Assembly (NCBI GenBank): GCA_964650955.1
Contig: CAZYXS010000002.1
Span: 1 to 53,381 of the forward strand
Reading direction: 5' to 3'
DNA from: an uncultured Desulfuromonadales bacterium
GTDB lineage: Bacteria; Desulfobacterota; Desulfuromonadia; Desulfuromonadales; CAZYXS01
Length of the DNA stretch: 53,381 bases
A model generated the notes under the pieces. That model had not been told where the DNA came from and ran no database searches. It was given only the letters and a program-made list of their open reading frames with translations. The stretch's first letter is position 1, and every line of letters starts with the position of its first letter. Of this stretch, positions 13,161 through 37,839 are shown in pieces. A program made the position numbers and the translations under genes.

Positions 13161-13237
<77 letters not shown>

Positions 13238-17183: not shown

Positions 17184-18683
17184 TCAGCGCAAAAAGAGCC
17201 AGTGAATTAGGGTGATGACGTAGATGCCCAGCAGCAGCGTCAGGTTGAGCGCCGCCGCAGGCAGAAACCCCCGCCCCCCAGCCCCTCCCCTGGCCATCTT
17301 CCAGGCGCCGGTCAGGCCGGCGAGGTACCCCCCTGTCAGCAGCAGGAGGGCTACCCATTTGAGCAGATCGATGGGAACCAGAACCCCGGGAGGGGGAACC
17401 ACCTGCATGACGTTGACCGCGAGGTAACTGCGCACCCCGCTCGGGTCGGCCAGCACCAGGGGGAGAAACACCCCCTTGGCATTGAGCTTGACCAGGGCCA
17501 GCACCAGATGGGCAGCCAGCAATAAGGGGACCAGGGGGAGGGTCAAGCGACCCAGGCAGGCCCAGAATCCCTCGCTCTGCCGGGAAGGGGGCAGCGCGGA
17601 GGGAGGCGCCAAGGAGGCCCCGTCCACATCGGCCACCTGCACCCCGCTCAGCCGCAGCAACAACCAGCCTGGGAGCACCAGCAGCAGCGGCAACCCCAGT
17701 GAGACCCAGAGCGCGGCCAGCAGTTCGAACCCGGCCACCTGCCAGCCGAGGACTTCGGCGGCCCGCTGCGGCAGCCACAGCAGTGCCTCTCGCAGGTCCA
17801 GGTAGACCTTGCTGAAGTTGGCGGTCAGCAGCCCCAGCAACACGACGAAGAAGAAGGCTTCGGAGGGCCGCAGGCCCCGCTGACCGAAATCCCCGAGCCA
17901 GGAGCGACGCCCGAGCAGGATGTTGCCTTTTTCGCAATTCTGCAGGCAATGCAGGCAGAGAGTGCAATCAGCGCTATCCTGCAGTTGGGCCGGAACCAGC
18001 CCGGCCGGGCAGTCCCGCCTGCGGGAAGGCCAGAACAGTTGCGCCCGCCCGAAGCTGAGCCGCCGCCATTGCTCTGCGCCACTGATGCAGTCCTGGCTGT
18101 CGCAGGCGGCGCAGGTCTCCGGGCATTTGACCCGCAATTGCAGCGGGGCGACCCGGGCATAGAGTCCGAACACGGCCCCGGCCGGACAGAGCAGGCTACA
18201 GAAGGAGCGTTTGCGAAACAGCAGTCCGAGACCAAGTGCGGTGGCCAGCACCAGGACCAGCAATACGGCAGTGTAATCCGGGTAGCGATGGATGGCCAGC
18301 AGATAGACAGCGACCTGCAGGGCGACCAGAGTCAGGGTCACGGGAATGAAATTGTCGAGCCAGCGCGGCAGCGGCCAGCCGAGGCCCATGCGGGCCACGA
18401 GGCCATTGAGCCACCCCAGTGGGCAGACTGTGCACCAGGCCCGGCCAAGCACCAGTGCCAGGGGCACCACCCCCATCATCCAGAGCACCCAGAACAGATA
18501 GGTGGCCAGGTTGGTGTACATCAAGGGGTCGCTCACCGCCACGCCGGGAATGCCGTGATGATGCCAGCCCGCGGCAATCATTGCCAGCAACACCAGCAGC
18601 CCGGCTATCTGCAGCAGGCGCCAGGGCCAGGCTGAATGCAGCAGTGATGCCAGGCCCCGGAACCGGGTCAGATCCCTCAGCAC
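17184..18683 (-). CDS. NapH/NosH-like membrane Fe-S protein with extra C-terminal multi-TM domain
   Basis: 499 aa. GTG start with GGAGG RBS. Polytopic, with membrane-edge WCTVCPLGW and FCSLLCPAG (CX2-3CP) motifs. Cys clusters CPETCAACDSQDC and CTLCLHCLQNC (ferredoxin-type). About 230 further hydrophobic residues follow. Confidence 0.7.
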   Translation of the reverse strand: MLRDLTRFRGLASLLHSAWPWRLLQIAGLLVLLAMIAAGWHHHGIPGVAVSDPLMYTNLATYLFWVLWMMGVVPLALVLGRAWCTVCPLGWLNGLVARMGLGWPLPRWLDNFIPVTLTLVALQVAVYLLAIHRYPDYTAVLLVLVLATALGLGLLFRKRSFCSLLCPAGAVFGLYARVAPLQLRVKCPETCAACDSQDCISGAEQWRRLSFGRAQLFWPSRRRDCPAGLVPAQLQDSADCTLCLHCLQNCEKGNILLGRRSWLGDFGQRGLRPSEAFFFVVLLGLLTANFSKVYLDLREALLWLPQRAAEVLGWQVAGFELLAALWVSLGLPLLLVLPGWLLLRLSGVQVADVDGASLAPPSALPPSRQSEGFWACLGRLTLPLVPLLLAAHLVLALVKLNAKGVFLPLVLADPSGVRSYLAVNVMQVVPPPGVLVPIDLLKWVALLLLTGGYLAGLTGAWKMARGGAGGRGFLPAAALNLTLLLGIYVITLIHWLFLR

Positions 18684-18710
18684 CGGGCACCTCCGCGGGT
18701 CGGCCTGCGG

Positions 18711-19613
18711 CTAGCGATAGACACTGTCAGGTGCAACCTGTTCTCCCTTATCGTTGCGGTAGGTGGTGGGCTGACCTGTGATCATCTCCAGGGAGCGGGC
18801 GGCCCATTCCCGCACGACCACCACTTCGTCGGCGAGGGCCGATCGCAACGGGGAGACGGCCGCCGCCGTACCCAGCGGGCCCAGAGCCATGGCAGCGTGC
18901 ATCCGGATCCGCTCATCGCTGTCGACCAAAGCTGCCAACAGGATCGACTCGGCGCGGGAATTCTTGAGTTTACCCAGAGCGAGAATCGCCTCGACCCGGG
19001 CCCCCCCCTCGGCTTGCGCCAGCAGCGCTTCCAGTGCCCGTGGATCGGCGATATCCCCCAGGGCTCGCACGGCCCCGGCGGCAGCCGTTGGGTTGGCCTT
19101 GTCGAGGAGGGCAATCAGGGGATCCACTGCGGCCTGGTTCTGCTTGATCAAGGAACGCACGGCCAATTTGCGCACTTCCGGGTCGGGATCGTCCAACGCA
19201 CCGAGCAGAGCCGGCACCGCGGCCGGATCGCCGATTTCACCCAGCGCCCAGGCGGCAACGTAGCGCCTGGTGTAGCTCCGGTCAGCCAGGACTCGGGTGA
19301 TGGCCGGCACCGCCTGGGTCACCTTCTGGTTGCCCAGCGCGGCGATGACATGTTCCCGGAGGTTGGCCGAGTCGGCTTCGACATGTTCCAGCAGCACGGG
19401 CACCGCGGCTGGCCCGGCTTCGAGCACCATGGCGTAAACCTTCGCATTGAGCGGCCGGTTCTCCTCCCCCAGCATTTGGACCAGAGTGCGGATGGCGGCC
19501 GGATCACCGCCACGGGCCCGCCCCTGCAGGGCATCCAGGTCGACCGGGCCGGACGGTTGGCAGGCCGTCAAATTGAAAAGCAGCAGCAGGGCCAGGGAAA
19601 TCCAGACTTGCAT
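18711..19613 (-). CDS. HEAT-repeat (PBS-lyase-like) lipoprotein
   Basis: ATG 19613 overlaps the upstream TAA (TAATG). Lipobox LLFNLTAC. Repeated ...A..ALG.IGDP.AVP.LL..L.D.D..VR..A... units. Confidence 0.75.
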   Translation of the reverse strand: MQVWISLALLLLFNLTACQPSGPVDLDALQGRARGGDPAAIRTLVQMLGEENRPLNAKVYAMVLEAGPAAVPVLLEHVEADSANLREHVIAALGNQKVTQAVPAITRVLADRSYTRRYVAAWALGEIGDPAAVPALLGALDDPDPEVRKLAVRSLIKQNQAAVDPLIALLDKANPTAAAGAVRALGDIADPRALEALLAQAEGGARVEAILALGKLKNSRAESILLAALVDSDERIRMHAAMALGPLGTAAAVSPLRSALADEVVVVREWAARSLEMITGQPTTYRNDKGEQVAPDSVYR

Positions 19614-20356
19614 TACCACACCTTGGTCACGGTGATGTTGACCTCCTTGAGAATCTCCCCGGTCTTGAGCACCACGGCGGAAGGCTCGATGGTTCCCTGG
19701 TCGTAGCGGCCGTAAAGGTCGCCCAGTTTGGGGGGACCGCCGAACTTGTCCCGGGCGGCAAGATAATAGGTGCCCCCGGCGGGAAGAAAGATCTGGTAGC
19801 GGCCGTCGGGGCCGGTTTTTTCCGAGACGTACTTGGGCCGCTCGGACATCTGCACATGGTCGTAGACATGCACCCGGGCCCCCTCCACCGGTTTACCTTC
19901 GCTGTCGGTGATCAACCCGGACAGCCCGGTGTCGGTAACCTGCGCCTCCTTGGTCAACTGCCGCACGTCCCCCACCTTGGGTGGCGCGACGATGGTAATT
20001 TCGCTCCCCCCCTTGCGAACGCTGATGGTGATGAATTCGCTCTTGTGGTCCCCGGCCACCACGGGGCCAGACGTATCACCATTGGCCCGGCGCCGCACCA
20101 CGGCAATATAATCTCCCTCCGGCAGGTCGATGGCGAAGGCCCCTTCCGGTCCGCTGGCATCGGTCATGGCGAAAGCCGGGCCGTACAGGTCGGCCCCTTT
20201 CTGGTAGAGGTAGACCCGCGCCCCCTCGAGGGGGGTCAGAATGGTGCCGCGCACCTGCCCGTGGGAGGTCCCGCCGGCGCCACTGCCGCCAGTTTCGGCG
20301 GTGCACCCGCCGAGGCCCAGAGCCAACATTGTCAAGCCAATCAACCACCGTCGCAC
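19613..20356 (-). CDS. carboxypeptidase-regulatory-like (transthyretin/Ig-like) two-module lipoprotein, paralog 5
   Basis: GTG start with GGAGAAG RBS. Lipobox LGLGGC. Two beta-sandwich modules; the second carries PAGGTYYLAARDKFGGPPKLGDLYGRYDQ, the same motif as module 3 of the four paralogs at 25964, 28221, 30615 and 36805. Confidence 0.7.
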   Translation of the reverse strand: MRRWLIGLTMLALGLGGCTAETGGSGAGGTSHGQVRGTILTPLEGARVYLYQKGADLYGPAFAMTDASGPEGAFAIDLPEGDYIAVVRRRANGDTSGPVVAGDHKSEFITISVRKGGSEITIVAPPKVGDVRQLTKEAQVTDTGLSGLITDSEGKPVEGARVHVYDHVQMSERPKYVSEKTGPDGRYQIFLPAGGTYYLAARDKFGGPPKLGDLYGRYDQGTIEPSAVVLKTGEILKEVNITVTKVW

Positions 20357-20382: not shown

Positions 20383-21498
20383 CTACCTTGACTTGGGCAG
20401 CAGTTCAAGCCGTTCCAGGGTCGTGGAAGCGAAATGTTCCCGCAGGGTGTGATCCATGATCGCCAGGCCGAATCGGGCCGCCTGCTCCGGCCCAGGGTGA
20501 AAGACGAGATCATGGGGATCGTTGGTATCCAGGGCGCGCCGCAAGACCACCGTCCAGTAACCGCCGGCATGACGGCTGTGGGCCCGTACGTCGGCTCGGT
20601 AACCGGCGGGTCGCTCCACCAGAAAGCCAGGAGCCCGCGTTCCCGGCGGTCGAAATTCCTTGCCCAAGGGCGCGCCTTCGCTATCATAGAGGGGGCGATC
20701 CCCTGGGGTAAAGGGGAAAGCGCTGCCGCCATCACGGACCGCCAGAGAGTTTTCCCGGAACAGGTCCCCGGGCAGATCGCCGTGCATCCCCTGGTCGTCC
20801 AGATAACGGTCGTCGGCAAAACCAAAGCGGCCGGTGCGCCCCGCCTTCCAGTGCCACAAGTCCAGGCTGGGCCCGGGCCTGGCCAGCTTCATCTTGCTCA
20901 CGGCGTGAAAATTGGCCCCGGAAACGCCAAAGTTGTCGATATGGCAGGCCATGGAACAACTGAAGCGGGGAAACTCTTCGGCCCCCGCCCAGAACAATCC
21001 CAAACTATCCTCAAGTGCCCCGGAGTTGCTCCACTCGGCACCGTCGAACTGCCATTCCATCATGGCGTCGTCCTGAGTGGCGTCGACCCAGGAAAGCCTC
21101 AGGTAGAGATCGGTGTCGGTGTAGAAGGCCCGCAGGTCGACCTCGATGGGGGTCGGCAGGGTGGCACCGTGGTGGCAGGCAGCGGTGGTGGCATGCACAG
21201 TGTCGTCGGCCACCTCCCCGGGAATGGTCATGCGGTGAGGACGACCACCCTTCACCGTGACCAGCCGCGGCAGGGCACTGCGCCACTCCTGCTCCGTCGG
21301 CGGTTGTTCCAGGTGCAGGGCATAGAGACGGTCCGCCGGCACCTCGCGACAGGCGGCCAAGGCAAATAGCACAAGGCAGAGAGCGACGAGGGAAGGCAAC
21401 CAGCGAATCACCAATTTAATTCTCCGTTTCGGCCACAACCAACGCTGGCCAGACAGCTCTTTCGGCATCGGCCCAAAAAAAAGCAAATACCGTACCAT
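20383..21498 (-). CDS. EB_dh-type (ethylbenzene dehydrogenase / DMSO-reductase gamma-like) haem-binding-domain lipoprotein
   Basis: The stretch DLRAFYTDTDLYLRLSWVDATQDD...LGLFWAG...FSCSMACH...LDLWHWKAGRTG resembles the EB_dh haem-binding domain. Lipobox LFALAAC. The start is uncertain (21498, 21468 or track 21681); I chose 21498 for its AAAGGA RBS. Confidence 0.6.
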   Translation of the reverse strand: MVRYLLFFGPMPKELSGQRWLWPKRRIKLVIRWLPSLVALCLVLFALAACREVPADRLYALHLEQPPTEQEWRSALPRLVTVKGGRPHRMTIPGEVADDTVHATTAACHHGATLPTPIEVDLRAFYTDTDLYLRLSWVDATQDDAMMEWQFDGAEWSNSGALEDSLGLFWAGAEEFPRFSCSMACHIDNFGVSGANFHAVSKMKLARPGPSLDLWHWKAGRTGRFGFADDRYLDDQGMHGDLPGDLFRENSLAVRDGGSAFPFTPGDRPLYDSEGAPLGKEFRPPGTRAPGFLVERPAGYRADVRAHSRHAGGYWTVVLRRALDTNDPHDLVFHPGPEQAARFGLAIMDHTLREHFASTTLERLELLPKSR

Positions 21499-21881: not shown

Positions 21882-23360
21882 ATGCCACCGAGACCCATCC
21901 TAGCCCTGCTGTTTGCGGCCACCCTGGGATTAACTTCCTCCCCGGCGTTGGCCGGCGAATTTATTGACATCTCGAGTCTGGCCGGCGTCGCCGACGACGG
22001 CCTGGGCAAAGGGGTCGCCTTCGCGGACATCAACAACGACGGCCTGGTGGACCTGTACGTGTCCAACAAAGGGGGCAGCAACAAACTGTACCTGAACCAG
22101 GGTGGCGGAAACTTCCTGGACATCACCGCCGACGCAGGCACCGGCATCGACCATCCGGGCTTCACCATGGGGAGCGTTTTCGGTGACTTCGACAACGACG
22201 GGCTGATCGACCTCTACCTGGCCACCGGGGGCCGGAACGAGATCGAAGCCAACCGCCTGTTCAAGAACATGGGCAACGCCACCTTCATGGATGTGACCGA
22301 CAAGGCCGGGGTCGGCCTGAAGGCCTTCACCTACTCGGCGTCCTTCGTCGATTTTGACAACGACGGTTTTCTTGACATCTACTGCGCCAATTATGGCGTC
22401 GGTGCCAAAAACGTCCTCTTCCGCAACAATGGCAACGGCACTTTCAGCGATGTGACCGATGCCGCCGGGGTGGGGGACCCCTCCTGGAGCTGGATGGGGG
22501 TCTGGGCCGATGTCAACGGCGACAACTGGCCCGACCTGTACGTCGTCAATGGCCGCTACCCGGCCGGGGAACCCAACCGCCTCTATATCAACAACCGCAA
22601 CGGCACCTTCACCGAAATGGCGAAAAAAGCCGGGGTGGATGACCCCCACTGGGGTCTGGGCGCCGCCTTCGCCGACGTCGACAACGACGGCGACCTCGAC
22701 CTGTTCGTCTCCAACTATGTGGGGGGCAACAACCTCTATCTCAACGACGGCAAAGGGTTCTTCACCAGGGGGACGGAGCGGATCAAGGGTGGCCACGATG
22801 GCTGGGGCAAAGGCCCGACCTTCGGCGATATCGACCACGATGGCGACATCGACCTTTACGAAGGGGACTGCAAACTGGCCAATCAGCTCTACCTCAACGA
22901 TGGCAAAGGCAATCTGGCCAACGTGGCCGACAAGCAGCCGGTGCTCAAGTGCGAAACCGTGCGCACCAAAGGGACGGCCTTTGCCGACATCGACAACGAC
23001 GGCGACCTCGATCTCTACGTGATCAACTGGGGCGCCCCCAACAAAATGTTCGAGAACAAGCAGAACGACCGCAAGTGGCTCAAGGTCAAGCTGAGCGGCA
23101 CTGTTTCCAATCGTGACGCCTACGGCGCCAAGGTCAGGGTCTACGTGGCTGGCAGCAGCAAACTGGTCGCCATGCGGGAATTGCGCTCGGCCACCGGGTT
23201 CTGCGCTCAGGAGCCCCAGGTGCTGCATTTCGGCCTCGACAACGGCCGGAGCTACGACCTGGTGGTGACCTTCCCCAGCGGCATCGAGGTAAAGACCAGC
23301 GGCGTCCAGACCGGCAAACTGCTCGAAGTGACCGAGCCTCGCAAAACTGCCCGGCGCTGA
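21882..23360 (+). CDS. FG-GAP/VCBS-repeat protein with C-terminal ASPIC/UnbV domain (CRTAC1-like), secreted
   Basis: ATG 21882 with AAAGGAGAG RBS. Signal peptide ...SSPALA. There are at least 6 repeats of the F.D.DNDG..DLYV.N type. The C-terminal WLKVKLSGTVSNRDAYGAKVRVY...ELRSATGFCAQEPQVLHFGL is UnbV_ASPIC-like. Confidence 0.85.
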   Translation: MPPRPILALLFAATLGLTSSPALAGEFIDISSLAGVADDGLGKGVAFADINNDGLVDLYVSNKGGSNKLYLNQGGGNFLDITADAGTGIDHPGFTMGSVFGDFDNDGLIDLYLATGGRNEIEANRLFKNMGNATFMDVTDKAGVGLKAFTYSASFVDFDNDGFLDIYCANYGVGAKNVLFRNNGNGTFSDVTDAAGVGDPSWSWMGVWADVNGDNWPDLYVVNGRYPAGEPNRLYINNRNGTFTEMAKKAGVDDPHWGLGAAFADVDNDGDLDLFVSNYVGGNNLYLNDGKGFFTRGTERIKGGHDGWGKGPTFGDIDHDGDIDLYEGDCKLANQLYLNDGKGNLANVADKQPVLKCETVRTKGTAFADIDNDGDLDLYVINWGAPNKMFENKQNDRKWLKVKLSGTVSNRDAYGAKVRVYVAGSSKLVAMRELRSATGFCAQEPQVLHFGLDNGRSYDLVVTFPSGIEVKTSGVQTGKLLEVTEPRKTARR

Positions 23361-23387
23361 TTTCCTCTACTCAATATTTGCCACGCA

Positions 23388-23423: not shown

Positions 23424-23493
23424 GCTGAAATCCGGCACAAAGATTGCTCTGAGACCTGGGGATTTCAGCCACTTCTGTTTCGCAGCGGAGACC

Positions 23494-25944: not shown

Positions 25945-25963
25945 CCTCGCAAAGGACGACTTC

Positions 25964-28224: not shown

Positions 28225-29267
28225 TCCGCTTTTTTCTGCTTCCGAGCCTGCTGCTGAGCCTCTGCGCCAGCGGCGCCCTGGCCGCCTCCGGGGTCAAGGG
28301 GCGGGCGGCCTGGCGTGGTGAACTGGTGCCGGATGTCCGGGTCTCGGCCTACCGCAGCATCGCGCACATCGCCGCCGGCAAGGTTGTCGCCGTATCCGCA
28401 CCGGCCGGGCTCGACGGCACCTATCGCCTCGACCTCGCGCCGGGTGACTATTACCTGGTGGCCCGGGATTTCACCGGCCCGCCCCGCCCCGGCAAGCACT
28501 TCTGCTACTACAGCGGCGCTCCGGTGCGGGTGGTGGCAGGCAGCTACACCAACGTCGGCTTCAACCTGATCCGCATCCCCGAGGAGGCCCCGCCCCAGGG
28601 CGCGCCGGCATCGGGGCTGCGCGGGGAGATCAGCTTCCAGGGAGAGCCGCTGGAGAAGGCTTACCTCTACGTCTACAAGGACCCGAGCAAGGATTTCAAA
28701 GCTCCCCCCTATTTCCTGCAGCCGGTGGAAAAGGGGAGTTTCCGCCTGCGCCTGCCCCCCGGGGAGTATTACCTGCTGGTGCGCAAGCGGGCCAAGGGGG
28801 GGCAGTTCGGTCCCATCGAGATCGGGGACTATTTCAACTATTATTACGGCAACCCGGTGCGCATCGCCGCCGGGGAGGTGCGGGAGGTCAAAATCGAAGC
28901 CATCACCCGCCTCTCCATGCTGGAGGAAGATGAGGAAACCGCCCCCTTCCAGGGTGTCCAGGGCCGGGTTCTGGGCCCGGACGGCAAACCCAGGGCCGGG
29001 CTCTACGTCTGCGCCTACCGCAGCGCGACCATGACGGGCACCCCCGACCACATTTCCCAGCCCACGGCCGCCGATGGCAGTTTCCGCCTCTCCCTGCCCG
29101 GACCGGGCACCTACCACCTGCTCGCCCGGGCCCAACTTGGGGGGCCCGCCGGGGAAGGGGAATATTATGGTAAATTCAAGGGGTCCGGCAATCATGCCCT
29201 GACCCTCGACAAGAAGACGCCGATTCGCGAGGTAATCATCCATGTGGCGAAGAATCCCGCTCCCTGA
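28221..29267 (+). CDS. carboxypeptidase-regulatory-like three-module protein, paralog 2
   Basis: ATGA overlap with the upstream stop. Signal peptide. Module 2 has PGEYYLLVRKRAKGGQFGPIEIGDYFNYYYGNPV and module 3 has PGTYHLLARAQLGGPAGEGEYYGKFKG. Confidence 0.7.
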   Translation: MIRFFLLPSLLLSLCASGALAASGVKGRAAWRGELVPDVRVSAYRSIAHIAAGKVVAVSAPAGLDGTYRLDLAPGDYYLVARDFTGPPRPGKHFCYYSGAPVRVVAGSYTNVGFNLIRIPEEAPPQGAPASGLRGEISFQGEPLEKAYLYVYKDPSKDFKAPPYFLQPVEKGSFRLRLPPGEYYLLVRKRAKGGQFGPIEIGDYFNYYYGNPVRIAAGEVREVKIEAITRLSMLEEDEETAPFQGVQGRVLGPDGKPRAGLYVCAYRSATMTGTPDHISQPTAADGSFRLSLPGPGTYHLLARAQLGGPAGEGEYYGKFKGSGNHALTLDKKTPIREVIIHVAKNPAP

Positions 29268-30618: not shown

Positions 30619-31652
30619 CGCGGATTGTCATCTGGCTGCTGCTGATTCTCGGCTGCACTGAGGCTTTTGCCGCCAACGTCGCGGGGCGGGTGGTGGAAGG
30701 GGACCAGCCTTTGCCCGGCATGCGCGTGGCCGCCTATAATGGTCTCGATTTTTCTGGAACTCCGCTGGCTGTCTCCCCCCCCAGTGATGCCGACGGCCGC
30801 TACCAGTTGGAACTCTCCCCCGGCCTCTATAGCCTCTTCGCCCGTGACGAGACCGGCAGCCGTTTCGCCTTCTGCGGCCGCAACCCCGTGGCGGTGGCGG
30901 CGGAACCGGTCTGGGCCGGGCTGCAGGCCGTGCCGGTGGTGGCGGCGACCAGCCAGCCCTACGATGATCCCGACAGCGCCGCCATTACCGGCACTGTGAC
31001 CTTGGGGGGCAAACCGCTGGCCGGTGCCTATGTCTACCTCTATCTCGACGCCGCCGAAGACCTCAAGGGGCAAGGCTACCGCATGTCCGCTCCCACCGGT
31101 AACGATGGCCGTTTCAGCTTCGATGGCCTGCCCGAAAGCGACTATTTCCTGGTGGCACGCCAGCGAGACAGCGGCGCCCGGGTCGGCCCGGTGCGGGAGG
31201 GGGATGCTCTCGCCATCTACCCCGGCAACCCCGTCCACGCCCGCACGGGCCAACAGTTGACGGTCAGCATGGAGGCGGTGCGCAAGGTGCAGGACGGCAA
31301 GGAGAGCGAGACCATTTCCCGGGCCACCGGCATGGCGATCCGCGGCCAGATCCTCGATCGTCAGCGCCGGCCGGTGGCGGGACTGCATGTCTTCGCCTAC
31401 ACCGACCGGGTGATCGGTCACAAGCGCCCGGAGGCCCTTTCGGCCCCCACCGGCCCCGATGGCCGCTTCATTGTCCATCTGCGGCAACCGGGAACCTTTT
31501 ACATCGGGGCTCGCCAGGAGTACGGCGATTCCCCGGCGCCAGGTGAACTGTTCGGCATGTACGACGCCAGTGCCGACCATGGCCTGGAAGTCGCCCCCGG
31601 ACAGAGCCACGACGACATCCTGATCCTGGTCGAACCGGTGACCCTGGACTGA
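30615..31652 (+). CDS. carboxypeptidase-regulatory-like three-module lipoprotein, paralog 3
   Basis: AAGGAGG RBS and ATGA overlap. Lipobox LILGC. Module 2 has ESDYFLVARQRDSGARVGPVREGDALAIYPGNPV and module 3 has PGTFYIGARQEYGDSPAPGELFGMYDA. Confidence 0.7.
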   Translation: MTRIVIWLLLILGCTEAFAANVAGRVVEGDQPLPGMRVAAYNGLDFSGTPLAVSPPSDADGRYQLELSPGLYSLFARDETGSRFAFCGRNPVAVAAEPVWAGLQAVPVVAATSQPYDDPDSAAITGTVTLGGKPLAGAYVYLYLDAAEDLKGQGYRMSAPTGNDGRFSFDGLPESDYFLVARQRDSGARVGPVREGDALAIYPGNPVHARTGQQLTVSMEAVRKVQDGKESETISRATGMAIRGQILDRQRRPVAGLHVFAYTDRVIGHKRPEALSAPTGPDGRFIVHLRQPGTFYIGARQEYGDSPAPGELFGMYDASADHGLEVAPGQSHDDILILVEPVTLD

Positions 31653-31666
31653 AACCGAGGCAGCCG

Positions 31667-32533
31667 ATGCGTCCCTTGTTCCCAACCCTGCTGCTGTTGC
31701 TGCTGACCGCCTGCAGTCTGCCAAGCCCGGCCCCGCCGGTGCTGGAACTGGAGGATGCGGTGATCCGCGATGAGCAGGTCTGGGGGGGCGAGGTGCGGAT
31801 CCGGGGGATCGTCACGGTGAAGAAGGAAGGGCGCCTCACCATCCTGCCCGGAACCCGGGTGGTCTTCGCCCCTCTCGACCGCGACGGAGACGGCATCGGC
31901 GACGGAGAACTGCTGGTGGAAGGGGCCCTGGTGGCCCGCGGGACGGCGGCCCAGCCGATCCTGTTCACCAGCGGGGCGGAAAAACCGAAAAAAGCGGACT
32001 GGAAATTCCTCTATCTCGATTTCGCCCGCGAGGCGCAAATCGAATACCTGATCTCCGAATACGCCTTCAGCGGGGTGCAGATCCATTTCTGCAAAGCGCG
32101 GGTGGCCAACTCCGTATTCCGTTACAACATCGATGGGCTGCGCTTCTCCACCGTCAACCTGGAGGCGACGGGCAACCTGATCCATGACAACACCCACGGA
32201 GTACGCTACGAGGAGCGCCGGGGCACCGCCCATCTGCATCACAACACCATCCGGGATAACGACATCGGCATCTTCCCCGTCACCCGGGGGGAGGACCGCT
32301 CGCTGTTCGAATACAACAACATCACCGGCAGCCGCCAGTACCAAGTGAAACTCGGTCTGGAGCAGGCAGGTGATGTCACCCTGCCCCGCAACTGGTGGGG
32401 CAGCAACGATCCGGCAGTCATCGAGTCAAGCTTTTTCGACCACCGCTTCGATGCGACCCTCGGCCGGGTCAGCGCCCCCCAGCCCCTGGCCGCGCCAGTG
32501 GCGCCGGCGGGCCCCGCAGGAGTCAAGCCATGA
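31667..32533 (+). CDS. NosD-like beta-helix lipoprotein (short type)
   Basis: Lipobox LLLLTAC. TILPGTRVVFAPLDRDGDGIGDGELLVEGAL.ARGT...PILFTS, then beta-helix repeats and LPRNWWGSNDP. It is collinear with the N-terminal half of the 34982-36811 protein. Confidence 0.7.
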   Translation: MRPLFPTLLLLLLTACSLPSPAPPVLELEDAVIRDEQVWGGEVRIRGIVTVKKEGRLTILPGTRVVFAPLDRDGDGIGDGELLVEGALVARGTAAQPILFTSGAEKPKKADWKFLYLDFAREAQIEYLISEYAFSGVQIHFCKARVANSVFRYNIDGLRFSTVNLEATGNLIHDNTHGVRYEERRGTAHLHHNTIRDNDIGIFPVTRGEDRSLFEYNNITGSRQYQVKLGLEQAGDVTLPRNWWGSNDPAVIESSFFDHRFDATLGRVSAPQPLAAPVAPAGPAGVKP

Positions 32534-33447
32534 GTATCGACCGCCGCCAATTCATTCTCGCCAGCCTGCGCGCCGCCCTGGCCGCGGCCGCCGCCGGCGC
32601 CGTCCCCGCCCTCTGGCTCCCCCGTCCCGCCGCCGCCACCTCCCCCGGGCCGCTGGTGGCCCTGCGCAAGGGGGGGGATATCCCCCGCCTGGTGGATGAG
32701 GTGCTGGCCGCCCTGGGCGGGATGAAACAGTTCGTCAAAACCGGCGAAACCGTGGTAGTCAAACCCAACATCGGCTGGGACCGCACGGTGGAACTGGCTG
32801 CCAACACCCACCCGCTGGTGGTACGCCGGGTGGTGGAGCACTGCCTGGAGGCGGGCGCGAAAAAGGTCCAGGTCTTCGACCGCACCTGTAACGACCCGCG
32901 CCGCTGCTACGTGGCCAGCGGCATCCAGGAGGCGGTGGAAGGGTTGCGCGCCGACCGCGTCAGCGTGGAGCACATGGAGCGCCGGGCCTACCAGGATCTG
33001 GACATCGGCCAGGGGGTGGAGCTGACCAGCTGGTCCTTCTACCAACCGGCGCTGCAGGCCGACCGCTTCATCAACCTGCCCATCGCCAAACACCACTCCA
33101 TCTCCCGCCTGACCCTGGGGATGAAGAACATCATGGGGGTGATCGGCGGCAACCGCGGCACCCTGCACCGCCGCCTGGAGGAGTCCCTCGCCGATATCAA
33201 CAGCGTGGTCCATTCGGACCTGACCCTCATCGACGCCACCCGCATCCTGGTGGCCAACGGCCCGCAGGGGGGACGAATTGAAGATGTCCGCCAGACCGAA
33301 ACCCTGATTGCTTCTGCCGACATCGTCGCCGCCGATGCCCTGGCCACCACTCTTTTCGACCTCAAGCCGGAGGATATTCCCACCCTGGTCACCGCCGCCC
33401 GACGGGGGCTGGGAGTGATGGACCTCGCCAAGATTCGCCGGGCATGA
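32530..33447 (+). CDS. TAT-exported DUF362-family protein
   Basis: ATG 32530 overlaps the upstream TGA. Twin-arginine signal MSIDRRQFILASL...AAAAAGA. DUF362-like blocks VVVKPNIGW, NLPIAKHHSISRLTLGMKNIMGVIGG and IDATRILVANGPQGG. The track start 32395 is an upstream extension. Confidence 0.7.
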   Translation: MSIDRRQFILASLRAALAAAAAGAVPALWLPRPAAATSPGPLVALRKGGDIPRLVDEVLAALGGMKQFVKTGETVVVKPNIGWDRTVELAANTHPLVVRRVVEHCLEAGAKKVQVFDRTCNDPRRCYVASGIQEAVEGLRADRVSVEHMERRAYQDLDIGQGVELTSWSFYQPALQADRFINLPIAKHHSISRLTLGMKNIMGVIGGNRGTLHRRLEESLADINSVVHSDLTLIDATRILVANGPQGGRIEDVRQTETLIASADIVAADALATTLFDLKPEDIPTLVTAARRGLGVMDLAKIRRA

Positions 33448-34985
33448 GAACGCGGCCGTTGCGCCGGTGGCGCCGCGCCACCCAATTACTGGCCCTGCTC
33501 GGGGTGATCTGGTTGTTTCTGCAGACCGACTACCAGGGGCAGGACGAGCTCGCCTTCCCCGTGGCCCTGCTGTTTCGTCTCGATCCCCTGGCCGCTCTGG
33601 CCGCAGCCCTGGCACCGGGGGACTTCCCCTGGGGCCTGCTCTGGCCGGCCCTGCTGCTGCTCGCCTTGACGGTGGTGCTGGGGCGGTTTTTCTGCGGCTG
33701 GCTCTGCCCCCTGGGCACCACCCTCGACGGCTGCGGCGCCCTGCTCGGCGCCGACAACACCACCCCCAGGCCTCGCTGGCGGCGGGTGAAATACCTGCTG
33801 CTGTCCGGCTTGAGTGCGGCGGCCCTGGGGGGTGTGCAACTGCTCGGGGTCTTCGACCCGCTGGCGATCTTCCTGCGCACCCTGACCCTGTCCCTGTTTC
33901 CGGCCTGGAACCTGGCCCTCAACGGCCTGTTCGAGCACTTTTACGCCAGTCAGACCCCCCTTGTCTCCCCCTTGCTCGACTGGGTCTATCCCTTCGCCCG
34001 GGATTACCTGATGGCTTTCCACCAGCCGGTGTTCACCCTCGGCCTGTTCACCCTCGGGGTGTTCGTCGCCATCGCGTTGCTGGAACGCTTCGAGCGCCGC
34101 TTCTGGTGCAAGAATCTCTGCCCCCTTGGGGCCCTGCTCGGCCTGTGCGCCCGCCACGCCCGCCTGCGCCACCTGCCGGCCCCCGATTGCGGCCACTGCG
34201 AGCAATGTACCGCCGCCTGCGCCAGCGGCGCCACCAACCGCCGGCATCATCAGCCCAGCGAATGTCTGCTCTGTTTCGATTGCGCCGGCCACTGCCCCGC
34301 TGCGGAGGTCCAGCTGTTCTGGCGCCGGGCCCCGGCGACGGCGGGGATCGACCTGACCCGCCGCGGCACCGTCGGCGCCCTGGCCGCAGGCGTCCTGCTG
34401 GCGCCGGTAGTGCGCAGCGCCCCGGCCCAGTACCGCCTCGAACCACTGCTGCTGCGCCCCCCGGGGGCGCTGGCGGAAGAAGAATTTCTGCGCCGCTGCG
34501 TCCGCTGCGGCGAATGCCTGAAGGTTTGCATCGGCGCAGCCCTCCACCCGGCCCTGCTGCAGGCCGGCGCCACCGGCCTGTGGACGCCGGTGGTGATGCC
34601 CCGCATCGGCTACTGCGAATACAACTGCACCCTGTGCGGACAGGTCTGCCCCACCGGGGCCATCCGGCGCCTGCCCCTGGAGGAGAAGCGCAAGGTGGTG
34701 ATCGGGTTGGCGGTGATCGAAAAGGATCGCTGCCTCCCCTTCGCCCGCGGCGAGGAATGCCTGGTCTGCGAGGAGCATTGCCCCACCGGCGAGAAGGCCA
34801 TCGTCTTCGAGGATAAGGACGTGCTGGTGCAGGGGGAGGTGCGGCGACTGAAGCTACCGCAGGTGGTCAAGGAGCGCTGCATCGGCTGCGGCATTTGCGA
34901 AACCCGCTGCCCGCTGGAGGGGCGCAGCGCCATCCGGATCTTCAACGACAAGGAGAGCCGCCGGGTCGAGCAGCGTTGGGATTAG
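33444..34985 (+). CDS. NapH/NosH-like membrane polyferredoxin
   Basis: 513 aa. ATGA overlap with the DUF362 gene. TM helices with FCGWLCPLG and WCKNLCPLG (2x CX3CP). Six Cys clusters: CGHCEQCTAAC, CLLCFDCAGHCP, CVRCGECLKVC, CTLCGQVCP, CLVCEEHCP and CIGCGICETRCP. Confidence 0.8.
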   Translation: MRTRPLRRWRRATQLLALLGVIWLFLQTDYQGQDELAFPVALLFRLDPLAALAAALAPGDFPWGLLWPALLLLALTVVLGRFFCGWLCPLGTTLDGCGALLGADNTTPRPRWRRVKYLLLSGLSAAALGGVQLLGVFDPLAIFLRTLTLSLFPAWNLALNGLFEHFYASQTPLVSPLLDWVYPFARDYLMAFHQPVFTLGLFTLGVFVAIALLERFERRFWCKNLCPLGALLGLCARHARLRHLPAPDCGHCEQCTAACASGATNRRHHQPSECLLCFDCAGHCPAAEVQLFWRRAPATAGIDLTRRGTVGALAAGVLLAPVVRSAPAQYRLEPLLLRPPGALAEEEFLRRCVRCGECLKVCIGAALHPALLQAGATGLWTPVVMPRIGYCEYNCTLCGQVCPTGAIRRLPLEEKRKVVIGLAVIEKDRCLPFARGEECLVCEEHCPTGEKAIVFEDKDVLVQGEVRRLKLPQVVKERCIGCGICETRCPLEGRSAIRIFNDKESRRVEQRWD

Positions 34986-36811
34986 GGACCTGGCTGCAGG
35001 GTGAGGGCGCGGATCTGGTGGTCGCGGCTGCCGAACAGAATCAGCCCGGCGAAGGGCACCGGGCGGCTCTGGATCGCCCCTCCGGCCTGAAAGCTGGCAA
35101 GCAGGTCGCCGCTGTCCCGGCCGACCACCGACAGCACCCCGCCGTTATCCCCGACCAGCACCCGCCGCCCCTGTACCAGGGGGGTGCCGTAACTGGGATG
35201 GGGCAAGGCCCGGCGCCAGACAGAGGTGCCGGTTGCCAGGTCGAGGTGGTGGAGGGCGCCTGCCGCCGTGGCCAGAAACAGGGCCTCGCCGTCGATCACC
35301 GGTGCGCCGTAGAAGCAGACTTCACCCAGCGGCCGCCGCCACAGCTCCATCCCTTCCCGATCGAAAGCGGTCAGGGTCCCCTCCCGGTCCACCACCACCG
35401 ACCCGACCGGCCCCAGGGCCGGCGGGGTCAACAGCGGCGCGGCCAGGCGCCGCTGCCAGAGCAGTTCTCCTTTCGGGTTCAGAACATTAAGACTGCCGTC
35501 GCCGGCGGCCAGGTAGATGCGTCCGTCGGCCACCACGGGGGTGGCCCTTAGGGGCCCGGCGGTGCCGAACTGCCAGCGCAACGCCCCGCTGGCCGCATCC
35601 AGGGCGTAGAGGGTGCCGTTCCAGGCCGGCACCAGCAGCAGATCGTCGACCCGCGCCAACCCGCCCTGACGGTGGTCATCCGCCGGCGAAGGGGCGTAGC
35701 GGAAGCGCCAGAGCACCCGTCCCCTGCCCCGCTCCAGGGCCAAGACCTCCCGCCCCCAGGTCTGCACGTAGACCCGTTCAGCATCCAGCGCTACGGCACC
35801 GTCGGCCACCTCCCCCAAATCCGCCTGCCACCGCAGCCTGCCCTTGGCATCCAGGGCGTAAAGGCGGCCATCCCAGCCGGGAATGAACGCCTCCCCGGAC
35901 GCCACCATGGCGGTGGCATCGACAAATCCCGCCGTCGGCAGTTGCCAGGCCGGCTGCAGGCGCAGTCCGTCCCGGGGGCCGGTCCCATCGATCCAGGCGG
36001 GTGCCGGGGTCAGGGTCACCGTGCCGATGCCGGGATCCTGGCGGCGATCGAAGATCCCCTCGGCCACCTGCTCCGGGTCGGCACTCCCCCACCAGTTCTC
36101 CCCCAGCTGGACGTCGGCGGCATAGAAATCCCCGAGGCGGAAGTTGTCCCGGTTGAGCAGGATGTTGTTCTCCTCCACCACCGAGGTGCGGTCGCTTTCG
36201 AACAGGAAGATGCCGGCGCCGTTGCGACGGATGAGGTTGCGGCGGATCTCCACCTTGGCGTTGCGGAAGTTTATCCCCTTGCCCTGGTTGTTTTCGATGA
36301 GGTTGTGGCGCCAGGTGAAGGTCGCCTCCCCAAGGCGGCAGCCGTCGATATTGTTGTGGATGTGGCAATCCTCGACGAGGCCGCGGGTGAAATGGGCATG
36401 CAGGGTGTAGGCGCTGTCGCGGATTTCGCAGTAGCGCAGGTGGATTTCCTTGGAGAAATCGGCATGGATTTCCAGCCAGTCCCCTGGCTGGGGATGCTCG
36501 GCCGCGGAGCGGAAGCGGATCGGTGCCTCGGGGGTCCCCAGGGCGCGCAGCCGCCCTTCGATGTTGAGGGTGCCGTCCCCCAGGCCGTCCTGATTGAGGT
36601 CCTTGGGCACAAAGGCGATGTCGGTGCCGGGTTCGATGGTCAGCACCGCCCCCTTGGCGACCTTGACCTCGCCGTCGATCAGGATCGAGCCGCGCCAGAC
36701 CGTATCCTCGGTGAGGACCAGATTGTGCAGTCGCTGCACCACCGGCGCCTTCGCCAAAGGGGCGCAGGCGGTCAGGGCCAGCAGAAAAACAGCGGCCAGG
36801 GCCTTTACCAC
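34982..36811 (-). CDS. NosD-like beta-helix (short type) fused to PQQ-like beta-propeller, lipoprotein
   Basis: GTG start. Lipobox LLALTAC. The N-terminal half parallels the 31667 protein (TIEPGTDIAFVPKDLNQDGLGDGTLNIEGRLRALGT...LGENWWGSADP). The C-terminal ~330 aa has repeated G.lyALDa.tG...W propeller blades. Confidence 0.75.
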   Translation of the reverse strand: MVKALAAVFLLALTACAPLAKAPVVQRLHNLVLTEDTVWRGSILIDGEVKVAKGAVLTIEPGTDIAFVPKDLNQDGLGDGTLNIEGRLRALGTPEAPIRFRSAAEHPQPGDWLEIHADFSKEIHLRYCEIRDSAYTLHAHFTRGLVEDCHIHNNIDGCRLGEATFTWRHNLIENNQGKGINFRNAKVEIRRNLIRRNGAGIFLFESDRTSVVEENNILLNRDNFRLGDFYAADVQLGENWWGSADPEQVAEGIFDRRQDPGIGTVTLTPAPAWIDGTGPRDGLRLQPAWQLPTAGFVDATAMVASGEAFIPGWDGRLYALDAKGRLRWQADLGEVADGAVALDAERVYVQTWGREVLALERGRGRVLWRFRYAPSPADDHRQGGLARVDDLLLVPAWNGTLYALDAASGALRWQFGTAGPLRATPVVADGRIYLAAGDGSLNVLNPKGELLWQRRLAAPLLTPPALGPVGSVVVDREGTLTAFDREGMELWRRPLGEVCFYGAPVIDGEALFLATAAGALHHLDLATGTSVWRRALPHPSYGTPLVQGRRVLVGDNGGVLSVVGRDSGDLLASFQAGGAIQSRPVPFAGLILFGSRDHQIRALTLQPGP

Positions 36812-37839
36812 ATCTCCTCCACCAGGATCTCGACCCCCTTGAGGGCCTGCCCCTCCTTGACGATCACCGCGCGGTCCGGGCGCTTGTCGTAGGTGCCGTA
36901 AAGTTCACCGGGGGCCGGGGCGCCGCCGAGCTCGCTGCGGGCCACCAGGTAGTAGGTGCCGCCGCGGGGGAAGGAGAGCACGAAGCTGCCGTCCTTGCCG
37001 GTGGGCTGGGAGACGTACAGGGGGCGATTGAGCATCTGCGGGTCGTCGTAGAGCATCACCCGCAGGCCGGCCACCGGTTGTTTCTTCTTGTCGAGCACCC
37101 GGCCATGGATGCTGGTCTGGCCGAACAACTGATCGGCCAACCGCTCCACCTTTTCCGGCACCTCGAGCATCGGCAGCGCCAACCGGGCCACCGCTCCCTC
37201 CTTGAGCACCAGGGGATTGCCCGGGTAGTAGCCGATGAAGTCGCCGGCCTGCAGCGGCCCCATGGCCGCCCCGCTGTTGCGCTGGCGGGCCAGCAGGTAA
37301 TAGGTGCCGGCGGGCAGGTCCAGCTCGAACATCCCCTGGTCGTCCGTCGGCCCGGCGATGCCCAGCCCCATCCCTTTGAACTGGCTGGTCAGATCGGTAT
37401 AGACGTAAACCAGGGCACCGGCCAGGGGTTTGCCCTCGGCGCTGACCTGCCCGAGCACGCCGTTGGAGATCAACGCCTTCTGCTGGGGCAGCGGCAGTTT
37501 CTCCGGGACCAGGCCGAGGTTCATCTCCGTCAGGCCGGCGGCGGGAACATGCACCGGGTTGCGCCCGTAATAGGCGAACAAGCCCTCCCCCCGGGCCAGG
37601 AAATAGTAGTCCCCCGGCGGCAGCTCCAGCATGAACAGGCCGTCGGCCTTGGTGGGGAGGGAGGTTGCCGTCGGCGTGCCGGTCAGGGTGGTGGCCGAAA
37701 GAGGATAGGCCTGGACGGTCACTCCGCCGACCCCCTTGGTGTTGACGGCGGCCTTGCCGGACACCGGGGCGGCCTGGGCGCCGAGGGGGGTCAGGAGCAA
37801 AAAAAAGAGGAGCAGCGGGAGGGAGTGGCAAAAGCGCAT
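36805..37839 (-). CDS. carboxypeptidase-regulatory-like three-module protein, paralog 4
   Basis: Signal ...TPLGAQA. Module 2 has AGTYYLLARQRNSGAAMGPLQAGDFIGYYPGNPL and module 3 has GGTYYLVARSELGGAPAPGELYGTYDK. It ends in ...EEMW and overlaps the downstream beta-helix gene by 7 nt. Confidence 0.7.
   Translation of the reverse strand: MRFCHSLPLLLFFLLLTPLGAQAAPVSGKAAVNTKGVGGVTVQAYPLSATTLTGTPTATSLPTKADGLFMLELPPGDYYFLARGEGLFAYYGRNPVHVPAAGLTEMNLGLVPEKLPLPQQKALISNGVLGQVSAEGKPLAGALVYVYTDLTSQFKGMGLGIAGPTDDQGMFELDLPAGTYYLLARQRNSGAAMGPLQAGDFIGYYPGNPLVLKEGAVARLALPMLEVPEKVERLADQLFGQTSIHGRVLDKKKQPVAGLRVMLYDDPQMLNRPLYVSQPTGKDGSFVLSFPRGGTYYLVARSELGGAPAPGELYGTYDKRPDRAVIVKEGQALKGVEILVEEMW

Follow-up and report, generated by a model that had tools for sequence, protein, structure and literature searches.

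What is made by a large, tightly packed set of genes for exported and membrane proteins in an uncultured Desulfuromonadales bacterium? The locus lies in a window of 53,381 nucleotides (GenBank assembly GCA_964650955.1, contig CAZYXS010000002.1, positions 1 to 53,381), by which we mean the whole stretch of DNA that was analysed. G+C content in the window is about 65%, and frames with high third-position G+C recovered the gene set of an initial annotation made from the letters alone, which had described a cluster of about 20 kb (17184-37839) as nos-type accessory machinery without any recognisable catalytic enzyme. Judging from sequence comparison, this gene set is one functional cluster of about 22 genes for exported and membrane proteins, and we tentatively read it, with slightly less than even confidence, as a redox system of the periplasm that is linked to quinol, has a scaffold of lipoproteins and includes a branch handling a thiophilic metal.

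The conservation of the gene set was followed by using its 816-residue membrane protein (TM816; gene names as in Table 1) as an anchor: 68 loci were fetched, and all window proteins were mapped onto their open reading frames (ORFs). Most of these loci display a canonical order, AAA - FmdE - ArsP - (FG-GAP) - (CPD4) - NosD-PQQ - TM816, continued by TM816 - CPD1 - NosD1 - CPD2 - NosD2 - CPD3 - (DUF3467) - short beta-helix - OpuAC - DUF362 - polyferredoxin, with most junctions overlapping. Most related Desulfuromonadales have these genes in one co-directional operon; in the window the order is rearranged, with several units on both strands. Desulfuromonas carbonis (L001) carries 14 cluster genes, from FG-GAP through the polyferredoxin, in a single co-directional operon (FG-GAP, CPD, NosD-PQQ, an 815-residue membrane protein, two successive CPD and beta-helix pairs, CPD, DUF3467, short beta-helix, OpuAC, DUF362, polyferredoxin). 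In Geothermobacter hydrogeniphilus, an EB_dh-CPD-HEAT-NapH module is divergent to the membrane-protein operon, like in the window. Low-G+C metagenome genomes (L053-L057), whose anchor is 33-35% identical, keep the canonical order minus NosD1 and DUF3467, and gene overlap or near-abutment is found in the window and in distant loci alike. In the 14 close loci with enough flank, the six scaffold genes downstream of the membrane protein were always kept (14/14), the DUF362 gene was present in 13, the polyferredoxin gene in 12 and the AAA-FmdE-ArsP trio in 11, while seven of ten distant loci keep most of the gene set. The smallest version (L051) retains TM816, three CPDs, the short beta-helix protein NosD3s, DUF362 and the polyferredoxin, with no detectable AAA, FmdE, permease, propeller or long beta-helix genes. 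The components listed by the initial annotation therefore do co-occur in other genomes. Carriers include Desulfuromonas, Geothermobacter, Geopsychrobacter, Geoalkalibacter and Trichloromonas, with D. carbonis, G. hydrogeniphilus, Geopsychrobacter electrodiphilus and Geoalkalibacter halelectricus as named species, but also lineages from sediments and vents that are unrelated to them. Relatives of the 29242 protein occur commonly across Desulfuromonadales.

Control of transcription was investigated by searching for TGGCAC-N5-TTGCW, with GG and GC fixed and at most one mismatch. Five matches were found in the window, all of them within the cluster; the number expected by chance for the entire window is about 1.2. 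Three of these stand, correctly oriented, at unit 5' ends, ahead of EB_dh, TM816 and the AAA-fold gene, and each is conserved among related loci; the version ahead of the AAA-fold gene, TGGCAT-N5-TTGCT (TGGCAC in one locus), was found in 24 of them. A further, perfect element lies inside the TM816 coding region and recurs at identical codon positions in about 45 loci, distant low-G+C ones included, the third-codon positions falling on its GG, A and GC bases being 0.74-0.82 conserved versus a gene mean of 0.53, and it may constitute an internal promoter. Because of these conserved elements, at unit 5' ends and inside TM816, the window units appear to share sigma-54 control. Pattern scans for Fur boxes and FNR/CRP-type sites gave nothing useful.

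These elements also refine the layout of the locus. As the conserved element upstream of EB_dh occupies 21497-21482, this gene probably starts at GTG 21411 instead of 21498; the minus unit previously placed at 21498-16143 was thus right in its gene content and in its terminator, found at 16118-16089(-), and probably wrong in its start. The FG-GAP gene ends in a terminator and therefore is its own unit, monocistronic in the window, so that the plus operon begins at 23494; in other loci (L001, L005, L053-L057) the FG-GAP gene lies inside the operon. The nine genes of the plus unit (23494-34985) are joined, as had been claimed, by overlaps or short gaps (+19, -1, -4, -26, -4, +14, -4 and -4 nt in order), and the plus and minus units do converge. 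The extent had been underestimated: the cluster covers about 16143-40652, and its extension to about 40321/40652 adds the ArsP-like permease, FmdE and AAA-fold genes. Every domain call of the initial annotation was reproduced by Pfam, and the two polytopic CX3CP/[4Fe-4S] proteins that it had placed at 17184 and 33444 both show Fer4_5 matches and conserved cysteines. Its view that every soluble product is exported was borne out by the signal peptides and lipoboxes visible in the translations, except for DUF3467, which has no export signal; among the lipoboxes, that of CPD3 (30615) is doubtful because its Cys is not conserved in homologues.

The redox core would be formed by the DUF362 protein and the polyferredoxin NapH2, whose genes overlap by 4 nt in the window and are always translationally coupled. 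The N-terminus of the DUF362 protein, MSIDRRQFILASLRAALAAAAAGA, contains an S/T-R-R-x-F-L-K-type twin-arginine translocation (Tat) motif and a hydrophobic region, and R5 and R6 do not vary in the sets of 21 and 32 sequences compared; the RRQF signal noted earlier at 32530 is indeed visible in the translation, as IDRRQF. The best AlphaFold2 (AF2) model of this protein had a mean predicted local distance difference test (pLDDT) score of 76.5, and the top 18 Foldseek matches to it were all of the LarA family (E 1e-6 to 2e-4, probability 1.0, query TM-score 0.35-0.49), so the protein, as modelled, has a LarA-like fold. DUF362 shares a Pfam clan with the LarA domain and has been used as an outgroup to the LarA tree; it has repeatedly been reported in association with Fe-S domains, and cellulolytic consortia have yielded fusions of it to CBM9 and dockerin modules. 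K78, D117, R118, C120, C126, K187, H189, K199 and H213 are among its invariant residues, and the OpuAC-like gene lies directly upstream of DUF362 in 12 of the 14 close loci. The initial statement that no recognisable catalytic enzyme is present is thus not supported as worded: a Tat-exported DUF362 protein with a LarA-like fold, coupled to a NapH-NapG fusion, is a plausible candidate for a catalytic subunit. In D. carbonis, a gene for a DUF3047 protein (L001 16805-17440, 226 bits) directly follows the polyferredoxin gene; none was seen in the window.

NapH2 scored 54.5 and 48.9 bits against the NapH equivalog and subfamily models (cutoffs 213-234), and its NapG-like region spans residues 304-502. 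Cysteines C84/C88 and C222/C226 are conserved along with the cluster motifs. A DL[TSQ]RRG motif is conserved in its relatives before the fifth membrane helix, and this helix (310-328) is the least hydrophobic one (Kyte-Doolittle hydropathy 1.56), followed by Arg323 as a positive charge. For the polytopic polyferredoxin of delta proteobacterium MLMS-1, experiments showed that insertion requires Sec and Tat jointly and leaves four clusters on the outer side of the membrane (Tooke et al., 2017; PMC5449189). By its architecture and by this analogy, NapH2 would be a dual Sec/Tat polyferredoxin, with a predicted Tat-dependent insertion. The second polytopic protein, NapH1, reached 33 bits against the NapH models (cutoff 213-234) and conserves CxxCP, CX3CP (C162/C166) and [4Fe-4S] cysteines. 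In the EB_dh lipoprotein encoded near NapH1, a CHHG motif and a C-x3-C-H motif (C181/C185/H186, numbered from start 21498) are conserved in seven homologues, and may represent an atypical covalent haem site; that the neighbouring PBS-lyase-type HEAT lipoprotein helps to attach a tetrapyrrole to EB_dh is pure speculation. CBM9 belongs to the same DOMON-like group as EB_dh.

TM816 was modelled with good scores (AF2 pLDDT 84.9, predicted TM-score 0.87) as seven helices, a soluble domain at about 241-588 and seven further helices. It scored 25.1 bits against Pfam PF01564 (gathering score 22.9), and the full model matched only spermidine synthases among the best 50 Foldseek matches listed, with a target TM-score of about 0.55. 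When aligned to Thermotoga SpeE (1inl), Asp170 is replaced by Gly and Asp173 by Ala, and TM816 falls under the SpeE equivalog cutoffs (16-35 bits vs 249-472). Loops rich and poor in K/R alternate consistently, and the positive-inside rule predicts that the SpeE-like domain faces the periplasm. The protein is 65-70% identical across genera. In a search of 1.84 billion cluster representatives (50% identity clusters), 13,816 belonged to its family at E <= 0.001 and 3,746 still did so at E <= 1e-30, nearly all of the best 150 matches listed being about 780-830 residues long; no description of its function was found in the literature, and homologues are annotated by the Joint Genome Institute (JGI) as "membrane-bound spermidine synthase", proteins which we take to be COG4262. 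The isolated membrane halves matched no Pfam family, and an internal duplication resembling the major facilitator superfamily was rejected, no repeat being detected by hhalign (probability 0.5%). TM816 relatives (33-37% identical) also occur without other cluster genes in four Anaerolineae loci (L058, L059, L068, L070), in two of which (L068, L070) the gene adjoins GT-C-like membrane proteins (PMT_2, PTPS_related/YfhO); in L070, an alpha-2-macroglobulin-like protein is also encoded beside it.

The four beta-helix proteins had been called NosD-like, and this likeness depends on the model used. Pfam PF05048 (NosD), which also matches generic beta-helix repeats, has a gathering score of 23.6 that is passed by three of them (89.8, 96.0 and 34.4 bits), and the fourth, at 31667, remains just under the Pfam cutoffs (Beta_helix 22.3 vs 25.9, NosD 21.3 vs 23.6). 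All four are far under the cutoff of 300 of the curated NCBIfam NosD model TIGR04247, with 66, 49, 17 and 18 bits for 27034, 29242, 31667 and 34982, respectively. The solved NosD structure (7o0y) was matched weakly by the 29242 sequence alone (E = 0.0085 over 55 residues), and with an insignificant E = 0.14 by a 38-sequence profile of its family. Two types can be distinguished, namely long secreted proteins (27034, 29242) and a short lipoprotein type (31667 and the N-terminal part of 34982). The long proteins share the motifs SSYP, QSxxWE and NWWG...D..D, and no Cys, His or Met is conserved at 90% in their family alignments; the short type is characterised by a calcium-type DxDGDGIGD motif and conserved histidines, the conserved residues of NosD-PQQ being Cys16, His138 and His140. 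Apart from a match of 29242 to Pfam Pect-lyase_RHGA_epim (29.3 bits vs a threshold of 27, on the C-terminal part of the profile only), no lyase, hydrolase or epimerase family of Pfam was matched by the beta-helix proteins, nor did the searches of solved structures return any lyase, NosD being the only match there.

As regards the other components of a nos system, the Pfam scans of window ORFs confirmed the earlier report of no nosZ, nosF, nosY, multihaem cytochrome or molybdoenzyme in the window. Outside it, 94 ORFs flanking related loci were scanned with Pfam, and the 25 most frequent families, which were those considered, included no nos genes, ABC transporters or molybdoenzymes; only FGGY kinase and thi genes were recurrent, and c7-type cytochromes occurred twice. 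L001 and L003 likewise contained no nosF/nosY, nosL or nosZ. An expanded conventional nos locus was thus ruled out, no nos genes being found in the window or among the frequent families of the flanks. With NosD scores of 17-66 bits against 300, no NosL, NosF or NosY, and no conserved thiophilic ligands in the long helices, the description as nos-type accessory machinery is not supported.

The five transthyretin-like proteins matched CarboxypepD_reg/DUF4198 in Pfam (19613, 25964, 28221, 30615, 36805), consist of two or three CarboxypepD_reg repeats and have a common extra motif, R-x-R..GG..GP...GD...NP. The DUF3467 gene separates CPD3 from the short beta-helix gene in 11 of the 14 close loci. 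A sulfur or polysulfide relay was considered as the main idea and rejected, the periplasmic proteins having no conserved cysteines.

A metal-type branch is suggested by three cytoplasmic or membrane proteins. The permease, whose C78 and C80 are conserved, lies below the equivalog cutoffs (SO_0444 86.9 bits vs 300; SaoE 80 bits); Cys-x-Cys is a signature common to the SO_0444 Cu/Zn exporters and SaoE (preprint). In two loci (L043, L060) the permease gene lies among, or adjoins, genes for HEAT and CPD lipoproteins. The FmdE-domain protein weakly matched the FwdE-like structures 2glz and 3d00. The AAA-fold protein is closest to the D2 domain of VAT/p97 (VAT D2, E = 6e-70), and in 26 of 26 homologues its Walker A reads GPLG[TV]G[IM]T, with Ile or Met replacing Lys, its Walker B reads SDC[ED]W in place of DE, and its C-terminal end is DCPHHY[EAT]F; it has the appearance of a pseudo-ATPase whose tail may bind metal.

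Taken together, these observations may be described as one envelope system under sigma-54-type promoters, all four modules of which are present in the window in a rearranged order. NapH2 would exchange electrons with the quinone pool, in either direction, through its NapH-like membrane part, and an Fe-S chain would lead to the four [4Fe-4S] clusters of the NapG-like domain, made periplasmic by Tat-dependent insertion of helix 5. This domain would serve the Tat-exported DUF362 protein, the only exported product that resembles an enzyme of the cofactor type and taken as the catalytic subunit, and the OpuAC-like lipoprotein would travel with the pair. In the window and in about six related genomes, a second input line may be provided by the NapH-like, haem-type EB_dh, HEAT and transthyretin-like lipoproteins. 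TM816, with its predicted periplasmic SpeE-like domain deprived of the catalytic aspartates, would stand at the centre of a scaffold in which CPD/beta-helix pairs and the two beta-propellers hold a large or surface-bound substrate or a redox client. The AAA-fold protein, FmdE and the CxC permease could handle a thiophilic metal, either by exporting it to the periplasmic machinery or in the maturation of DUF362 before its export. Our guess is that the substrate is either an envelope polymer or a metal or metalloid species outside the cytoplasm. A bolder version, which we hold to be unlikely, would make DUF362 a new periplasmic redox enzyme with an unusual metal cofactor, either organometallic of the LarA type (nickel-pincer-like) or of another kind, fed by quinone via the dual Sec/Tat polyferredoxin, matured or supplied by the pseudo-AAA/FmdE/CxC-permease metal pathway, and acting on an insoluble or polymeric substrate presented by the beta-helix/transthyretin scaffold; if true, metal- and sulfur-reducing bacteria would possess a module for respiration or detoxification that has so far escaped recognition.

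Several points weigh against the redox interpretation. In Geothermobacter (L003/L025), the scaffold and the second NapH module are present with no DUF362 or polyferredoxin gene within 10 kb, so adjacency of the redox pair is not universal. The DUF362 model deserves only moderate confidence, the other four models having pLDDT values of 52-64, the protein has only three conserved cysteines and no assignable cofactor, and sequence and profile searches of solved structures gave it no match and no residue-level alignment with LarA. Periplasmic placement of the SpeE-like domain relies on the positive-inside rule only, and a nucleotide-type glycine loop and acidic residues persist in this domain, features that would better fit a cytoplasmic ligand of the S-adenosylmethionine (SAM) type. 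The window contains no gene for an enhancer-binding protein, and no description of such a system was found in the literature.

The other explanations differ in how much of the cluster they account for. The distribution of the window genes over several units and both strands could suggest that unrelated genes for exported proteins lie together by accident; the same genes form one operon in the same order in many genomes, down to 33-35% anchor identity, and the units share sigma-54-type elements. Owing to the synteny conserved in close and distant loci, chance juxtaposition is excluded for any practical purpose. An alternative which the initial annotation had raised as a polysaccharide-modifying role, and which we consider rather unlikely, is an apparatus modifying or exporting an envelope polymer, in which the beta-helices would be CASH-type carbohydrate enzymes or binders like AlgG, the transthyretin-like proteins carbohydrate-binding modules, TM816 a translocator or modifier of a glycan or lipid-linked polymer, and the redox pair a device for oxidative or reductive tailoring. 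Such a role would fit the abundance of beta-helices and beta-sandwiches, the polar and aromatic residues (SSYP, QSxxWE, NWWG) that the long beta-helices conserve instead of metal ligands, the small excess of 29242 over the Pect-lyase_RHGA_epim threshold, confined to the C-terminal part of the profile, the GT-C-type neighbours of TM816 relatives in two of the four Anaerolineae loci, and the fusions of DUF362 to CBM9 and dockerin. It is opposed by the cluster having no glycosyltransferase, sugar-nucleotide enzyme, Wzx/Wzy/Wza, outer-membrane porin or acyltransferase, none of these being recurrent among the 94 flanking ORFs either, and by the failure to match a polysaccharide lyase or hydrolase family or solved structure; moreover, it leaves the conserved metal-type branch and the two NapH-type proteins unexplained.

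A nos-like machine, maturing a metal or metal-sulfide centre in a periplasmic client encoded elsewhere, is the idea of the initial annotation. It would assign the role of NosD to the beta-helices, of NosL to the lipoproteins and of NosR/NosH to the NapH-type proteins, which are indeed present, and a thiophilic metal could come from the CxC permease together with the cytoplasmic Cys/His proteins. We regard it as distinctly unlikely: the three beta-helix proteins over the Pfam NosD gathering score remain, with the fourth, very far from the NCBIfam cutoff, the family profile barely approaches the solved NosD, the long proteins have no conserved Cys, His or Met, neither the window nor the frequent Pfam families of the flanking ORFs include NosF, NosY, NosL or NosZ, and no candidate client recurs near the cluster. 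Finally, the dominance of five transthyretin-like, four beta-helix and two propeller proteins, the calcium-type DxDGDG motifs of the short beta-helix proteins and the long beta-helices, which have no conserved Cys, His or Met and no assignable active site, could denote a mainly structural or adhesive assembly of the periplasm or surface, anchored by TM816, with redox and metal modules serving its folding or upkeep. This appears very unlikely, since the genes for two NapH-type quinol-linked proteins and for an enzyme-like protein exported by Tat show tight, often translational, coupling to scaffold genes, and since the minimal cluster L051 retains DUF362 and the polyferredoxin without detectable propeller or long beta-helix genes.

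Table 1. Positions of the features of the cluster and of its borders in the window, with the matches and motifs that characterise them.
Feature	Position	Strand	Evidence
Two tRNA genes	13041-13114, 13164-13237	-	
Intrinsic terminator, ends minus unit	16089..16118	-	13-pair stem, 9 G-C pairs, then T run
OpuAC-like short binding protein, conserved N-terminal Cys (ARAC|VGKT)	16143..16748	-	OpuAC 73 bits, C-terminal profile part only
DUF3467 small protein, no signal peptide	16806..17108	-	Pfam DUF3467 90.8 bits
NapH1, NapH-like polytopic Fe-S protein, about six extra C-terminal membrane helices	17184..18683	-	Fer4_5 40 bits
HEAT-repeat (PBS-lyase type) lipoprotein	18711..19619	-	HEAT_2 131.6 bits; lipobox Cys20 conserved
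CPD0, transthyretin-like (CarboxypepD_reg) lipoprotein	19613..20356	-	Pfam 48.6 bits; Cys18 and R.R..G..GP..GD motif conserved
EB_dh (DOMON-like, haem-type) lipoprotein, revised start probably GTG 21411	20383..21411	-	EB_dh 89.4 bits
Sigma-54-type -24/-12 element upstream of EB_dh unit	21482..21497	-	TGGTACGGTATTTGCT; same before EB_dh in six loci keeping the whole EB_dh gene
FG-GAP/ASPIC (CRTAC1-like) secreted beta-propeller	21882..23360	+	FG-GAP_3 208 bits, UnbV_ASPIC 38 bits
Terminator after FG-GAP gene	23385-23413	+	Strong terminator
Sigma-54-type element 46 nt upstream of TM816	23433..23448	+	CGGCACAAAGATTGCT; similar, same place in L003, L030, L035
TM816, 816 aa, 14-helix membrane protein, central SpeE-like domain (about 241-588)	23494..25944	+	Spermine_synth weak match, AF2
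Perfect sigma-54-type element inside TM816 coding region, codons L697-L702, 366 nt before CPD1	25583..25598	+	TGGCACTGGTTTTGCT
CPD1, transthyretin-like lipoprotein (LAAC|D)	25964..27034	+	CarboxypepD_reg 67 bits; Cys19 conserved
NosD1, long (type A) secreted right-handed beta-helix	27034..28224	+	Beta_helix 96 bits, Pfam NosD 90 (89.8) bits
CPD2, secreted, transthyretin-like domains	28221..29267	+	CarboxypepD_reg 47.8 bits; RKR..GG..GP...GD...GNP motif conserved
NosD2, long (type A) secreted beta-helix	29242..30618	+	Beta_helix 141 bits, Pfam NosD 96 bits
CPD3, secreted transthyretin-like	30615..31652	+	CarboxypepD_reg 67.5 bits; Cys not kept in homologues
NosD3s, short (type B) beta-helix lipoprotein, DxDGDGIGD motif and conserved His	31667..32533	+	Sub-cutoff Pfam matches
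DUF362 protein with twin-arginine signal, candidate catalytic subunit	32530..33447	+	DUF362 160 bits
NapH2, NapH-NapG fusion polyferredoxin, internal twin-arginine DLTRRG 302-307	33444..34985	+	NapG 104 bits, NapH 54 bits, below cutoffs
NosD-PQQ lipoprotein, type B beta-helix fused to PQQ_2 (BamB-like) propeller	34982..36811	-	PQQ_2 133, Beta_helix 40, NosD 34 (34.4) bits
CPD4, secreted double transthyretin-like	36805..37839	-	CarboxypepD_reg 60 bits
ArsP/SO_0444-like permease, conserved SPLCACG	37922..38878	-	ArsP_1 129.5 bits vs 32.3
FmdE-domain protein (HGHxCP...C)	38871..39308	-	FmdE 64.5 bits; H15, H17, C19, C52 conserved
AAA-fold protein without ATPase motifs	39366..40247	-	AAA 57 bits, AAA_lid_3 46 bits
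Sigma-54-type element 59 nt upstream of AAA-fold gene	40306..40321	-	TGGCATGTATGTTGCT
Small protein of about 105 aa, weakly like tetratricopeptide repeats (TPR); syntenic neighbour, membership uncertain	40335..40652	-	Matches upstream of AAA gene in about 11 loci
Thiamine pyrophosphate (TPP) riboswitch	40803-40906	+	64.9 bits; upstream of thiS-like/thiF fusion gene 40970-41776

At the right border of the cluster, a long minus-strand ORF (40335-40904) overlaps the TPP riboswitch with its 5' part, and Met85 (40652) is conserved, where its product probably begins. The Rfam search gave no riboswitch belonging to the cluster, the TPP element of the neighbouring thi genes being the sole one. To the left lie housekeeping genes (a lipoamide-type dehydrogenase, tsaE, nnr, acpS, pdxJ, glmM, cdaA, folP, ftsH, tilS), together with the two tRNA genes, an epimerase, a SPOR protein and ftsB. 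To the right, the riboswitch is followed by thiS/F, thiG, a thiH-like gene and thiE, and the window end (44692-53354) encodes a PAS-GGDEF-EAL protein, a radical SAM protein and two GAF-containing hybrid histidine kinases, with no sigma-54 activator among them. In related loci, FGGY-family sugar kinases account for 7 of the 94 flanking ORFs; judged by position, they appear to lie divergently, directly upstream of AAA, in L009, L012, L018, L024, L028, L039 and L064, and probably reflect mere conserved synteny. In the distant low-G+C loci L053, L055, L056 and L057, the gene just upstream of AAA encodes a protein of about 430-500 residues with an MJ0042-type zinc ribbon (MIIxCDxCxxKFK), and def and fmt come after the cluster.

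Desulfuromonadales are known for the reduction of iron, manganese and sulfur and for electrode respiration, and the cluster is widespread among them without the cytochromes or molybdoenzymes that usually explain their respiration. Its elucidation would provide a first functional context for DUF362, DUF3467 and the 14-helix family (more than 3,700 clusters at 50% identity), and would assign a physiological partner to dual Sec/Tat polyferredoxins; it also includes an AAA-fold protein that has lost the ATPase motifs and acquired an invariant Cys-Pro-His-His tail. Several carriers are named species, which makes the question directly testable if they can be grown and manipulated.

Comparison with known systems shows a series of partial likenesses. 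With NosDFY/NosL/NosR(NosH), the cluster shares beta-helix proteins matching Pfam NosD, lipoprotein partners and NapH/NosH-type CX3CP Fe-S membrane proteins. By contrast, NosZ, NosF, NosY and NosL are absent from it and the curated NosD model is not reached (17-66 vs 300 bits); it has four beta-helix proteins of two types, each beside a transthyretin-like protein, its long beta-helix proteins have no conserved thiophilic ligands, and its membrane partner is a 14-helix SpeE-like protein instead of an ABC transporter. In the alginate periplasmic scaffold, the beta-helix epimerase AlgG acts with AlgK and AlgX, and the likeness lies in a periplasmic beta-helix with lipoprotein or beta-sandwich partners acting on a polymer; the cluster differs in having no polymerase, glycosyltransferase or outer-membrane porin, and in possessing redox and metal modules. 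The AAA-fold protein shares the fold and lid of AAA+ ATPases (Cdc48/VAT), but has neither the Walker A Lys (GxxGxGKT) nor the Walker B Asp-Glu. The permease shares the ArsP_1 fold and a Cys-x-Cys in a membrane helix with ArsP/SO_0444/SaoE permeases, from which it differs by its scores below the equivalog cutoffs and by its operon with FmdE and an ATPase-dead AAA-fold protein. TM816 resembles SpeE and "membrane-bound spermidine synthase" in its fold, its GPGGGKD loop, a conserved Glu after strand 2 and a gatekeeping-loop-like PxAG...LYT.EAF segment, whereas the equivalents of Asp170/Asp173 are Gly/Ala, and the domain is flanked by 7 + 7 helices and predicted to be periplasmic, where decarboxylated SAM is not expected. 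DUF362 shares its modelled fold and its Pfam clan with the LarA superfamily (nickel-pincer nucleotide racemases/epimerases, DUF2088), and has invariant Lys and His residues. In LarA1, Arg75, Lys184 and His200 bind the cofactor and His108 and His174 are catalytic, and the H189-K199-H213 spacing of DUF362 recalls His174-Lys184-His200, a candidate correspondence by spacing only; DUF362 is nevertheless a separate Pfam family (PF04015, not DUF2088), about 100 residues shorter, Tat-exported and with Fe-S partners. NapH2 shares with the polyferredoxin of MLMS-1 (PMC5449189) the NapH-NapG fusion, two CX3CP motifs, cytoplasmic [4Fe-4S] motifs, an RR motif directly before a weakly hydrophobic helix 5 and four C-terminal [4Fe-4S] motifs, and differs from NapGH and the MLMS-1 protein by its scores below the NapG/NapH cutoffs and by its partner, a Tat-exported DUF362 protein instead of NapC/NapAB. 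Considered by its predicted composition, the ensemble would thus be a new kind of system, whose modules individually resemble NapGH and dual Sec/Tat polyferredoxins, LarA, SpeE and ArsP/SO_0444.

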